Assembly (NCBI GenBank): GCA_000165345.1 | Contig: CM000434.1 | Span: forward strand, 320,001-384,000 | Length of the DNA: 64,000 nucleotides | Direction: 5' to 3' | Notes under the pieces: model-generated | Seen by the model: only the letters and a program-made list of their open reading frames with translations | Told to the model about the DNA's origin: nothing | The model's database searches: none | Translations under genes and position numbers: made by a program | In this document: positions 51,880 through 55,410 of the stretch, piece by piece | Position numbering within the stretch: the stretch's first letter is position 1 | Layout of the letters: each line of letters opens with the position of its first letter

Positions 51880-54800
51880 ATGACTTTAAGCGACAGCACA
51901 GGCAATAACAGTACTGTCCCTACGCAAGGGAATTCAGGAAATAATCCTTCCAAATTTAAAAGTCAATTGAGAGCAGATGCTCAGGAGTTTAAGCCTACAT
52001 TCGGAATTACTGGTTCTAATGTCATTCCAAATTCAGGTATTTATTACCATGGAATGATGCCTAACTATAGTCACGTAATTGAATATAATGGGTACCGAGT
52101 GGGTGGTACATATTATAACAAAAGTCTTAAAAAACAAAACAATGGAGAGTTATCAAAATCTTCGACCTATCTCAATCCAAACGCTCAAGAATTTATTCCC
52201 AGAGGTTGGGTAAATCCTACAAATGAGCCTTTTATAAATCATTTAGAACATCAAAAATTTGTGAAGCCGGTCTGCGCCGATACTTATACTCAAAATTTGG
52301 ATCAAGCAGATTCTCAACGAAATGATGACTTGTTAAATTTAAAATCTGAACAAATTAAGCACAACTCTGCTGAGTCTGCAAAGCCTAAGATGGAGGCTAG
52401 CTCTCCGCCACAGAATGTAACTAAGATGACAAATAAGGCTGATAACTCGCAAGATATATCTTTAAAGTCTCACAAAAAAGGCTTAGATTCTGATATGGAT
52501 CTATCACCCCAGAAGGCGGACCAAGGTTTTTCTAGTCCGGCTTCTAACAAACTGTCATCGAGTGATTTATCAAATCAATCAACTCACTTTACATTTAAGG
52601 ATAAGTTATTAGCACGTGTTAGCACTAATAATAATAATAATAATAATAATAATAATAATAATAATAATAATAATAATAATAATAATAGTAATAATAATGA
52701 TAATGATGATAACGATAATGATAATGATAATGATAATGATAGTGGTAATAATATTAATGTTAATAATGTCGTTTCAAATGCAATAAATAATCAATCTACA
52801 ATAAATTTCATAGAAAAACAAAATTCCGAGATTATTAAAAACGTGGCTTTTACAAAAACTAACGAGATACAAATTTCTAATAAAGAAGCAAAGGATCTTG
52901 ATAATTCAGAACGCCACGATACAAAAAATGAAATATTTGATGAAAAGAGTCGCCATTCCAATCAAAATATTACAACTAAAACTAATTTAAACGTCCTTGG
53001 TAGAAAAGAAACTGATACAGGACCAGTAAGCTGGGCGCAGAGACTCAAAAACAGCACATCAATTCCGCACAACAAAAAAACTGGTGAGTATTGTACAGCA
53101 AATGCTGAATCAACATTTTCTAGCGAAAACAAACCGCACACAGAAATAAATGTTGAAAAACATGATACTCTTAAATCTAATTCTCCTAAGAATTCAACTA
53201 ACCAAACTGGAGGCTCCTCAAAAGATAATTTGGACTCTAATAAGGCAAAAGACTCTAAGAAATCAAGAGAGAAATTTAACTCACTAGAAAACTCGAAAAG
53301 TTCAAAAAGAGAAGCGTCTAAAAAAAGTGATTTAGATGAAAAACAAAAGGTGAAAAAACCAGAAAGTAGTATATGTGAACATATTGAAAGTGAAACTCTC
53401 AATTCTGATAATAACTCAAGCTTTATTGAAAGCAAAGCTAACTTAAATAAAGATAAGGAAATTGTAGCTTTCGACTGTCCCAAAGAGGAAAAAACTGCCA
53501 CTAAGAAAAACTCACTTTTTGAATATAAAAACTTTTCAATATATACTTTGCTTGCATTAAGGACAATTTCTAGTGAATTTAAGAACTTAGACACGAGTTT
53601 TTCTCCCCCAGAACTTTTTAAACGAAATTTTGGCTCAAAGGAGTTAGATAGAGATGGTGGGCATCGTGGCAGAGGATGGTCAGGAAACTTGAGTCACTCT
53701 ACCGGAAATAAGCATTATCATCGTGAAACTGGAAATTACGGCCCGAATAATCGCAGAGATAGATTTCAAAGCCATGGGAATACTCAAAACTCCCAGGGAA
53801 GTAAGCGTGTTAATGATAATGCAAATGGAGGAGCCCAGAATTCAACACTTGATTGGACAAGGGATGAAAGAAAAATGTTCAGATTGGAAAGTTCTGCGGA
53901 AAGTTGGGTTGTAAAACAAAAAGAACAAAAGGCAAAAGGAAATCAATTTGAGACTCAACTTCGTCAGTATAGGGCAATTTTGAATAAATTGACCATTGAG
54001 AAATTTGACAAACTATATGAACAAATACTATCAGTGGGTATAAACAATGAAGAAGAGATGATTGGGCTGTTAAAACTTGTATTTGACAAAGCAACAACAC
54101 AGCATCATTTCATACCTATGTACGTTGAGCTCTGTGATAAGCTACGCGATCACTTAAAAGATGTAACAACCATAGAGACCAGGCGTATTTTGGTAGATCT
54201 TTGCCAGGAGCTGTTTGTGGAGAACTTATCAGAAATGGTTTTGCCTGAACACATTCAAGACAATGAAGAAGACTCTTTTGAATGGCAATTAAAGTATAAA
54301 AATAAGATGAAAGGTAATATGATATTTATGGCTAGCTTAGTCCGCAAAAAGGTCATTGCATCAACCGTTGTTTTGATGTGTATGGAAGAACTTCTACAAT
54401 TCCACTTACCACATCATTTAGAGGCTTTATGCGTATTTCTACACCATGTAGGGCCGTTTTTAGATAGTGAAAGATGGAAGCATTATGAAGATTTTAATAC
54501 TTTATTCCTTCAATTTGAAGAGTTTTCAACTAATAAAGAAGTGCCAATTCGAATCCGATTTTTAATTAATGATGTAATAGATAGCAGAAAAAATAACTGG
54601 AAAAGCAAAAATGCTAAGGAGGGTCCTATGATGCTTGACGATCTCAAATCGAAGATTAATGCGGAACGTGGAGAGTCAGGAGGTAGTTCAGCAAAAGTAA
54701 GTAATTCGTCACAATATAAGTCACAAAATGGTAGTTCATTCAAAACATCTGACAAAAATGCTACAACAGATAATAACGTCAAGTCCGCGGGCGCATCTTC

Positions 54801-55410
54801 TAATCCATGGCAGAAGCACGCTACATCGAGCTCTTCAAAAGGAGGGCCCATAGGTAGCAATAATTCTGCAAAAACTTCAGAAAAGAACAAGACTTCTAGC
54901 CAATCAACTCATGACGCTAACATTGATAAGAATGGCTACGGGCAAAAAATCGATGATGAGCTTTTAGATGAAGAAAATGAATACTATATACCAGAGCATA
55001 TAAAAGACAGTATTGGAGGACTAATGGATAGTTATGTGGCAAGTTATGATTTGGATGAGTTTTTTGGTCATATAAATGATTTAGAAATTCCTCAGGAGTA
55101 CTTTGATGGTGTTTATAAAAGTATATTTATACGTATAGCAGAGTACAAGGTTAAGCAAAGAAGTGCATTGTTTAAAGCTCTAATCCTATACTCACTTAAA
55201 AACAAAGAATATATGAACGGTGAGTCAGCAAAATCAGGAATCCAAATGGCTCTCCAACCAAGTATTCTGGATGATATTCTAATCGATGTACCTCAATTTA
55301 AAGAAATTGTTTTGACTGAATTTATTACTGATGCGATTTCCAAATACGACTCAAATGGTCAAGTATTTGATTCAGATTTCATTTCCAAAGCTAATTTACT
55401 TTTGAGTTAA
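51880..55410 (+). CDS. eIF4G/Paip1-like protein with two N-terminal PAM2 (PABP-binding) motifs, a MIF4G domain and a C-terminal MA3/W2-like region.
   Basis: PAM2-like LRADAQEFKP (51967..51996) and a perfect LNPNAQEFIP (52171..52200). The MIF4G block is ILNKLTIEKFDKLYEQIL...FIPMYVELCDKL. There are long N/S/K-rich inserts. Confidence 0.6.
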   Translation: MTLSDSTGNNSTVPTQGNSGNNPSKFKSQLRADAQEFKPTFGITGSNVIPNSGIYYHGMMPNYSHVIEYNGYRVGGTYYNKSLKKQNNGELSKSSTYLNPNAQEFIPRGWVNPTNEPFINHLEHQKFVKPVCADTYTQNLDQADSQRNDDLLNLKSEQIKHNSAESAKPKMEASSPPQNVTKMTNKADNSQDISLKSHKKGLDSDMDLSPQKADQGFSSPASNKLSSSDLSNQSTHFTFKDKLLARVSTNNNNNNNNNNNNNNNNNNNNSNNNDNDDNDNDNDNDNDSGNNINVNNVVSNAINNQSTINFIEKQNSEIIKNVAFTKTNEIQISNKEAKDLDNSERHDTKNEIFDEKSRHSNQNITTKTNLNVLGRKETDTGPVSWAQRLKNSTSIPHNKKTGEYCTANAESTFSSENKPHTEINVEKHDTLKSNSPKNSTNQTGGSSKDNLDSNKAKDSKKSREKFNSLENSKSSKREASKKSDLDEKQKVKKPESSICEHIESETLNSDNNSSFIESKANLNKDKEIVAFDCPKEEKTATKKNSLFEYKNFSIYTLLALRTISSEFKNLDTSFSPPELFKRNFGSKELDRDGGHRGRGWSGNLSHSTGNKHYHRETGNYGPNNRRDRFQSHGNTQNSQGSKRVNDNANGGAQNSTLDWTRDERKMFRLESSAESWVVKQKEQKAKGNQFETQLRQYRAILNKLTIEKFDKLYEQILSVGINNEEEMIGLLKLVFDKATTQHHFIPMYVELCDKLRDHLKDVTTIETRRILVDLCQELFVENLSEMVLPEHIQDNEEDSFEWQLKYKNKMKGNMIFMASLVRKKVIASTVVLMCMEELLQFHLPHHLEALCVFLHHVGPFLDSERWKHYEDFNTLFLQFEEFSTNKEVPIRIRFLINDVIDSRKNNWKSKNAKEGPMMLDDLKSKINAERGESGGSSAKVSNSSQYKSQNGSSFKTSDKNATTDNNVKSAGASSNPWQKHATSSSSKGGPIGSNNSAKTSEKNKTSSQSTHDANIDKNGYGQKIDDELLDEENEYYIPEHIKDSIGGLMDSYVASYDLDEFFGHINDLEIPQEYFDGVYKSIFIRIAEYKVKQRSALFKALILYSLKNKEYMNGESAKSGIQMALQPSILDDILIDVPQFKEIVLTEFITDAISKYDSNGQVFDSDFISKANLLLS
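52626..52740 (+). repeat. (AAT)n about 60 nt followed by (GATAAT)n about 45 nt, encoding poly-Asn then (DN)n.
   Basis: Directly visible pure tandem repeats in the coding sequence. Confidence 0.9.

Follow-up and report, generated by a model that had tools for sequence, protein, structure and literature searches.

The basis of the closed-loop model of translation is the contact between the scaffold protein eIF4G and PABP (poly(A)-binding protein), which is mediated by RNA recognition motifs (RRMs) in yeast, animals and plants; yeast and human eIF4G bind RRM2 of PABP through a segment that is not of the PAM2 type. Canonical eIF4Gs (human eIF4G1/eIF4G3, yeast Tif4631/4632, plant eIF4G/eIFiso4G) have a disordered N-terminus with the PABP and eIF4E contacts, followed by the MIF4G (HEAT-1) and MA3 (HEAT-2) domains. 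MA3 is found in animal and plant eIF4G and is absent from yeast, while W2 is found in animal eIF4G only. Here we describe a single-exon gene of a Cryptosporidium genome, located in a 64,000-nucleotide (nt) stretch of GenBank assembly GCA_000165345.1 (contig CM000434.1, positions 320,001–384,000, forward strand; hereafter, the window). The encoded protein (the window protein) has the same scaffold order as the canonical eIF4Gs, and also shares with them a segment directly before HEAT-1, but in place of the usual PABP contact it has a pair of PAM2 peptides predicted to be aimed at the MLLE domain of PABP. The protein is probably an alveolate-type eIF4G scaffold that tethers PABP through PAM2–MLLE contacts.

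Three other described systems resemble it in part. Paip1, a metazoan factor, holds PABP and stimulates translation, and its MIF4G domain binds eIF4A and eIF3. It is similar in having a PAM2 N-terminal to MIF4G, but Paip1 itself has one PAM2, an acidic PAM1 and neither an eIF4E site nor an MA3 domain, whereas the window protein combines two PAM2s with an eIF4G-type MIF4G, MA3 and a helix that probably binds eIF4E. DAP5 (eIF4G2/NAT1) and Toxoplasma eIF4G3 likewise have MIF4G followed by MA3, but are without a long N-terminal region bearing motifs for PABP and eIF4E; DAP5, moreover, contains a W2 domain. In Leishmania, the cap complex is tied to PABP1 by a PAM2–MLLE contact that uses almost the same peptide; there, however, it is the cap-binding protein eIF4E4 that carries the PAM2, and PABP1 is not bound by eIF4G3, whereas in the window protein the PAM2s are on eIF4G itself, leaving eIF4G as the scaffold.

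A full-text literature search returned no description of PAM2 in the eIF4G of Cryptosporidium, other apicomplexans or dinoflagellates, or of PAM2 together with MIF4G, and no paper on the PABP or MLLE domain of Cryptosporidium. A study of the Toxoplasma proteins placed their motifs by alignment to human eIF4G1 and does not mention PAM2 (PMC11237481).

PAM2 Peptides

The gene reads from ATG to stop without interruption in the list of open reading frames (ORFs). Its position and those of the elements discussed first are given below, numbered from the start of the window (aa, amino acids).

51880–55410 (+): single-exon gene for an eIF4G-family protein of 1176 aa
51967–51996 (+): PAM2-1, LRADAQEFKP, aa 30–39, from Pfam PAM2 and a pattern match
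52171–52200 (+): PAM2-2, LNPNAQEFIP, aa 98–107, from Pfam PAM2 and a pattern match
53962–54597 (+): MIF4G/HEAT-1 domain of the eIF4G type, aa 695–906, from Pfam and solved relatives, and helical in the AlphaFold model

An earlier note on this DNA had proposed two PAM2-like peptides, LNPNAQEFIP being a textbook match, both of them N-terminal to a MIF4G domain, and all of this was borne out. Pfam PAM2 (PF07145) scores 34.8 bits over two stretches of the protein (cutoff 20), which are spaced by ~68 residues. The published consensus is LNxxAxEFxP (Leu3, Ala7, Phe10, Pro12), with Phe10 as the chief determinant (PMC7356810), and PAM2-2 agrees with it at all defining positions. PAM2-2 is also near-identical to the PAM2 of Leishmania eIF4E4, MNPNATEFMP, which has been crystallised on the PABC domain of PABP1 and binds with a dissociation constant of ~2-3 x 10^-8 M (PMC6379680). 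Because of the agreement with the consensus and the near-identical Leishmania peptide bound to a PABC domain, we strongly infer that each PAM2 binds to PABP's MLLE domain. In the AlphaFold model, the region of the peptides is without secondary structure (aa 1–384) and has a predicted local distance difference test score (pLDDT) of <50, in keeping with the disordered setting that short linear motifs require.

The window protein is long and compositionally biased and a PAM2 is just ~10 residues, so the peptides might be functionless chance matches in a low-complexity protein. For a protein with this composition, however, the expected number of matches to the relaxed pattern L.[APSV].A.[EP]F.P is only 1e-4, and just 4 of 20,000 shuffles of the protein gave even one match. 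A six-frame scan of the whole 64-kb window found it only twice, at PAM2-1 and PAM2-2. Conservation within the genus was assessed using an alignment of ten Cryptosporidium orthologues. PAM2-2 (L98–P107) is invariant in all ten species except for I/V at position 106, while the 9 of 9 orthologues that have the N-terminus (the C. bovis model begins downstream) show no difference in PAM2-1 and its flank, FKSQLRADAQEF.P, although the surrounding sequence diverges to ~50% identity. Distant alveolates have PAM2s in the same N-terminal placement, as detailed in the next section. These conservation data effectively refute an origin by chance, to which we attach next to no probability.

The window protein is collinear with nine Cryptosporidium orthologues. 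It shares 97% identity with that of C. hominis (named 'Ataxin-2 C-terminal/MIF4G domain containing protein' by NCBI) and 90% with that of C. meleagridis, falling to ~50% for those of C. ryanae and C. bovis, and these identities place it in the Cryptosporidium parvum/hominis clade. An identical sequence was absent from a public collection of 15 billion proteins, and the C. hominis orthologue is the only member of its 90%-identity cluster. A 2018 survey lists a single eIF4E (XP_627474) for C. parvum along with two genes of the eIF4G type; the window gene would be the PAM2-bearing one of the two. The second paralogue (XP_626575) was not recognised, by amino-acid composition, among the 150 best matches of the exhaustive search described below. 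Two antisense ORFs lie within the gene, opposite Ser/Lys-rich stretches (52962–53594, minus strand, 210 aa; 54510–54890, minus strand, 126 aa), and are most likely by-products of the biased composition and not genes.

Distribution among Alveolates

The genus profile, run exhaustively with HMMER, returned 3183 proteins at E ≤ 1e-3, and A.[EP]F.P peptides occur near the N-terminus in 46 of the best 150 of them. To have an intact N-terminus, relatives were required to have a Met start and at least 250 residues ahead of MIF4G, which left 84 proteins; ahead of MIF4G, 48 of these have one or more PAM2 cores and 29 have two or more. About half of the nearest full-length relatives thus have one to three N-terminal PAM2s. 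All 82 cores found in relatives lie upstream of MIF4G and none downstream, despite the greater number of residues downstream, and at the positions left free by the pattern they follow the PAM2 consensus (L/F at −4, S/N at −3, A/P/V at −2).

The same pair as in the window protein is present in Besnoitia besnoiti, as RSQLRADAMEFRP and FNRNAQEFVP, the former being the same peptide as PAM2-1. The PAM2s of Babesia microti are FNPNAPVFIP and LNTNAPEFIP, and others were found in B. ovis, B. duncani, B. caballi and B. divergens, in Theileria annulata (UniRef name, 'MI domain-containing protein') and T. orientalis, and in the dinoflagellates Polarella glacialis and Durusdinium trenchii. Since PAM2s occur in Besnoitia, Babesia, Theileria, Polarella and Durusdinium, and since Pfam PAM2 agrees by scoring over its cutoff in five piroplasm proteins, the PAM2-eIF4G architecture is, by sequence, alveolate-wide and not specific to Cryptosporidium. 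The conservation in orthologues on which the earlier note had made its proposal depend therefore extends well beyond the genus.

The dinoflagellate eIF4G-like proteins with N-terminal PAM2s are 600–1400 aa long and include P0042/P0182 (Polarella), P0231 (Durusdinium) and, from MMETSP transcripts, P0107 and P0166. Published statements hold that dinoflagellate eIF4G consists of the MIF4G part only and is without a PABP-binding domain. The PAM2-bearing sequences, that of Polarella also having MA3, are at odds with these statements.

Narrower searches were less informative. The MIF4G segment alone returned just anonymous metagenome fragments and missed the orthologues, and an apicomplexan profile returned proteins of ≤613 aa, mostly dinoflagellate fragments, from which the architecture in Toxoplasma and Plasmodium was not obtained. 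The top matches of the exhaustive search outside Cryptosporidium were two plant proteins, P0036 (Sarracenia purpurea) and P0037 (Tetracentron sinense), which have three matched stretches, are without PAM2 and ranked above the apicomplexan orthologues. Multiple copies of MIF4G, low-complexity scores or contamination are possible reasons for their high rank.

Folded Domains and a Candidate eIF4E-Binding Site

The following two regions bear on the assignment of the protein to eIF4G rather than to Paip1.

53533–53628 (+): candidate eIF4E-binding region, FSIYTLLALR (aa 552–561) and FK.L....PPEL.KRN, to aa 583, a conserved island with a predicted helix
54994–55404 (+): MA3/HEAT-2 domain, aa 1039–1175, at the protein end, from profile and fold comparison, with helical repeats in the model

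The MIF4G domain of the earlier note was confirmed by a Pfam match of 108 bits (E = 7e-31; cutoff 30.8). By sequence, its closest solved relatives are the HEAT-1 domains of human eIF4G1 (E = 3e-26), eIF4GII and DAP5 (to 3e-21), and there was no Paip1 chain among the PDB sequence matches at E ≤ 1. At the C-terminus, where the note had described a region like MA3 or W2, the direct Pfam match to MA3 (aa 1042–1154) reached 16 bits, under the cutoff of 23.2. A profile of the Cryptosporidium C-terminal domain nevertheless matches the C-terminal domain of the Polarella relative (i-E = 2.6e-6), which is itself called as MA3 by Pfam (26.4 bits, over the cutoff), and a joint Cryptosporidium-Polarella profile matches the MA3 of PDCD4 in PDB over ~104 positions (E = 2e-9). 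Because the Polarella domain is called MA3 and the joint profile matches PDCD4 MA3, the domain is identified by profile comparison as MA3; the top fold match to it is the C-terminal region of DAP5. W2 (HEAT-3) was not found. A W2 domain is ruled out by the missing Pfam match and a low fold rank, and the protein stops at MA3, so that only the MA3 half of the earlier description holds. The absence of W2 is shared with yeast and plant eIF4G.

The description 'eIF4G/Paip1-like' is also divided by these results. Its eIF4G half is supported by the relatives of MIF4G, the MA3 domain, the segment before MIF4G and the probable eIF4E helix. Membership of Paip1 is ruled out, as MIF4G matches eIF4G1/2/3 and not Paip1 and MA3 is present; an acidic segment resembling PAM1 was not noticed, though no search was aimed at PAM1. 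On the sequence evidence, then, the window protein is partly Paip1-like in its working but is not a member of that family.

A role in bridging the 5' and 3' ends of mRNA, as envisaged in the earlier note, requires a contact to eIF4E, which the note left unaddressed. The best candidate by sequence is aa 552–561, FSIYTLLALR, which fits [F/I]xxxxLLx[L/V]R and lies 143 residues upstream of MIF4G. The related pattern [YF]xxxxLLx[LFVIM]R was found in 15 relatives, 80–141 residues ahead of MIF4G (for example, MYPIALLLQLR, YPFDFLLQFR and TFSILALLKLR...PGEL), and gave 14 matches in 121 upstream windows compared to the 0.04 expected from shuffles. A canonical YSKRLLV is present in the Besnoitia orthologue that shares the PAM2 pair. 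The eIF4E-binding motif engages eIF4E as a helix, and AlphaFold predicts a helix at aa 554–559, inside FSIYTLLALR. Supported by the positional pattern and its enrichment over shuffles in relatives, and by the predicted helix, the segment is a probable eIF4E-binding site, of non-canonical type as it has Phe or Ile instead of the canonical Tyr. Another island of the N-terminal half, FTFKDKLLARV, could be read as an eIF4E motif (FxxxxLA) but is less likely, with Ala at the phi position and no match beyond the genus Cryptosporidium among the relatives scanned.

Several observations weigh against the reading of the protein as an eIF4G scaffold that binds PABP and eIF4E. A pattern search of the window protein found no strict YxxxxL-phi motif (YxxxxL[LMFIVW]), and position 0 of the candidate motif, Phe in the window protein, is occupied by Ile in the C. 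felis, C. ryanae and C. bovis orthologues. A profile of the FSIYTLLALR island matches relatives weakly (E ~1-7), and the second C. parvum eIF4G-type gene might be the main eIF4E partner. On the PABP side, PAM2-1 departs from the consensus LNxxAxEFxP in having Arg for Asn at position 4, though at no other position, and the proteins of Besnoitia and Polarella get no PAM2 call from Pfam at E ≤ 0.01, although their peptides can be seen by eye. An MLLE domain in Cryptosporidium PABP is assumed by analogy, from a survey statement that PABPs generally consist of four RRMs and a C-terminal PABP domain, and from Plasmodium, in which PABP1 carries MLLE and an association of PfPABP with PfeIF4G has been reported (PMC5760745).

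The absence of a strict motif, the Ile in three species and the presence of two eIF4G-type genes in C. parvum would all suit a cap-independent co-activator of the Paip1 or DAP5 kind, which binds PABP and eIF4A/eIF3 but not eIF4E, the other paralogue being the real eIF4F scaffold. Toxoplasma eIF4G3 provides a parallel, as it is without an eIF4E motif and does not bind eIF4E1 (PMC11237481), and Paip1, whose PAM2 is also described in the literature, shares the order of PAM2 then MIF4G. Such a role is nevertheless unlikely. In the search of solved structures MIF4G matched eIF4G1/2/3 and not Paip1; the MA3 domain is foreign to Paip1, which one passage of a 2026 preprint calls a metazoan factor; and the long N-terminal region is unlike DAP5 or Toxoplasma eIF4G3. 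Where relatives have YxxxxLL, the window protein retains a conserved [F/I]xxxxLLxLR with a predicted helix, and the canonical motif of the Besnoitia protein accompanies the same PAM2 pair.

Proposed Model

The layout of the preferred scaffold is a disordered N-terminal half with short conserved motifs, MIF4G/HEAT-1, a disordered linker and MA3/HEAT-2. We infer that it binds both PABP and eIF4E. PAM2-1 and PAM2-2 would each bind cytoplasmic PABP at its MLLE (PABC) domain, holding the scaffold to the poly(A) tail through the C-terminal domain of PABP; as a speculation, a flexible chain with two PAM2s could contact a pair of neighbouring PABPs and so provide avidity. FSIYTLLALR and the downstream PPEL segment would bind the single cap-binding protein, eIF4E, while MIF4G and MA3 would recruit eIF4A (and eIF3 and RNA), possibly with the assistance of the Arg/Gly-rich and pre-MIF4G segments (see below) in RNA binding. 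The combined effect of the PABP and eIF4E contacts would be to connect the cap with the tail, and the Asn/Asp and Ser/Lys tracts would serve as flexible, length-variable spacers. As there is no W2 domain, docking of a Mnk-type kinase is not expected. In Toxoplasma, pull-downs of eIF4E1 contain eIF4G1, eIF4G2, PABP, eIF4A and eIF3 (PMC11237481).

The PAM2s could also be real ligands that serve a purpose other than bridging, such as recruitment to stress or storage granules, competition with the PAM2s of eRF3 or deadenylases over mRNA stability, or docking of a non-PABP protein with an MLLE domain (a HYD/UBR5-type ligase). Among the many factors that carry PAM2, effects on translation and decay run in opposite directions, and Toxoplasma eIF4G1/2 and PABP move to stress granules (PMC11237481). 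In the window protein, however, the PAM2s are on an eIF4G scaffold with eIF4A-binding domains and a probable eIF4E site, so that a linkage of tail to cap would follow once PABP is bound. Such roles are compatible with bridging, and as the sole purpose of the peptides they appear decidedly improbable.

Other Conserved Islands and Low-Complexity Inserts

The remaining features of the protein are as follows.

52042–52098 (+): Tyr-rich island YYHG..P.Y....Y.GYR, aa 55–73, from invariant alignment columns
52588–52620 (+): invariant island FTFKDKLLARV, aa 237–247, from the alignment of ten orthologues
52626–52767 (+): length-variable Asn/Asp low-complexity insert, N20-S-N3-DNDD(ND)5..., from Tandem Repeats Finder and sequence
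53026–53058 (+): island VSWAQRLKNST, aa 383–393, invariant in the genus, with an AlphaFold helix at 385–391
53647–53769 (+): Arg/Gly-rich segment, aa 590–630, from composition and conserved R/G/W columns
53848–53955 (+): pre-MIF4G extension LDWTRDERKMFRLESSAESWVVKQKEQK..., aa 657–692 (LDWTRDERKMFRLESSAESWVVKQKEQK being aa 657–684), near-invariant in the genus
54670–54978 (+): Ser/Lys/Asn-rich disordered linker, aa 931–1033, from composition, poorly conserved, with pLDDT <50 over 909–1035

The YYHG..P.Y....Y.GYR island is essentially confined to the genus Cryptosporidium. VSWAQRLKNST has a counterpart, [ST]WA[QEDA]R[LM]K, placed after the PAM2s and before MIF4G in eIF4G-like proteins of distant alveolates, namely P0039 (Besnoitia, aa ~910–919), P0042/P0182 (Polarella), P0040, P0043, P0044 and P0077 (Theileria), and by sequence it is an alveolate-wide motif. 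The LESS..SW..KQ core of the pre-MIF4G extension was found in 61 of 154 relatives, and the extension aligns with the segment ahead of HEAT-1 in human eIF4G1. The Arg/Gly-rich segment possibly binds RNA, by likeness to the RNA-binding regions beside HEAT-1 in other eIF4Gs.

The inserts between these islands had been described in the earlier note as extreme low-complexity sequence, likely disordered and possibly length-polymorphic, with a run of 24 Asn. The Asn tract (aa 250–273) is in fact N20, one Ser and N3, and is followed by DNDD(ND)5. The DNA that encodes it, at nt 52626–52767, is a microsatellite-like array of imperfect (AAT)n/(GAT)n repeats. Ser/Lys-rich stretches, by composition, occupy aa 321–540 and 931–1033. 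The prediction of disorder is upheld by the full-length AlphaFold model, built on the ten-orthologue alignment, in which pLDDT is <50 for aa 1–694 and 909–1035; in aa 1–694 just two short helices are predicted (385–391 and 554–559), both in conserved islands. Length variation is seen between species, as the Asn/Asp tract and the Ser/Lys-rich stretches differ in length or disappear in the alignment of the ten orthologues. Between isolates it is hinted at by the five additional residues of the window protein relative to the C. hominis orthologue, a difference that was placed in the Asn/Asp tract and fits a variable repeat.

Neighbouring Genes

The window has ~30% G+C and consists of tightly packed eukaryotic housekeeping genes. 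Positions 10001–22000, with HDAC, DEAH helicase, kinase and E2F/DP genes, are at 0.33–0.41 G+C compared to 0.25–0.31 in most of the window. Within that region, two adjoining ORFs, each of exactly 490 aa (13918–17194, +), are the halves of one DEAH-box helicase, the N-terminal half with DEAD/AAA and the C-terminal half with Helicase_C, HA2 and OB. They are separated by a single phase-0 intron of 259 nt (15382–15640, GTAAGT...TTTAG), the removal of which restores DEAH...GLLK|ETCIK...SAT. An ORF of 827 aa (26214–28697, +) carries a Fringe-like glycosyltransferase (aa 73–315) fused to a polysaccharide pyruvyl transferase (PF04230, aa 499–788), and since PF04230 is known mainly from bacteria, the gene may stem from an ancient horizontal transfer. 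A further ORF, of 102 aa (55815–56123, +) and immediately downstream of the eIF4G gene, matches only positions 11–106 of the 215-position profile of MFAP1 (pre-mRNA processing) and may be a short or split gene model.

Conclusions

PAM2 and MIF4G annotations of these proteins are already in public databases, and the observation itself is not new. Both modules are familiar. What the finding adds is recognition and evolutionary rewiring, not a new mechanism, and its main value is the lineage-wide pattern. We tentatively suggest, as a possibility that falls somewhat short of probable, that apicomplexans and dinoflagellates shifted the eIF4G–PABP contact from RRM2 to MLLE via one to three N-terminal PAM2s. 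If this is true, eIF4G would compete with eRF3, deadenylase adaptors and ataxin-2-like proteins for the same pocket of PABP, and the closed loop would be regulated by a logic unlike that of yeast and animals. The PABP-binding domain described in reviews as missing from dinoflagellate eIF4G would be merely unrecognised, the silence of the Toxoplasma alignment study on PAM2 would be explained, and [ST]WAxR[LM]K would mark a further partner. If the contact is conserved from Cryptosporidium to dinoflagellates, the two Phe residues would offer a mutable handle on closed-loop function, relevant to parasites whose stage conversion is driven by translational control. The translation-initiation pathway of C. 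parvum is druggable through eIF4A, and the PAM2–MLLE interface, if real, would be unlike the eIF4G–PABP contact of the host.

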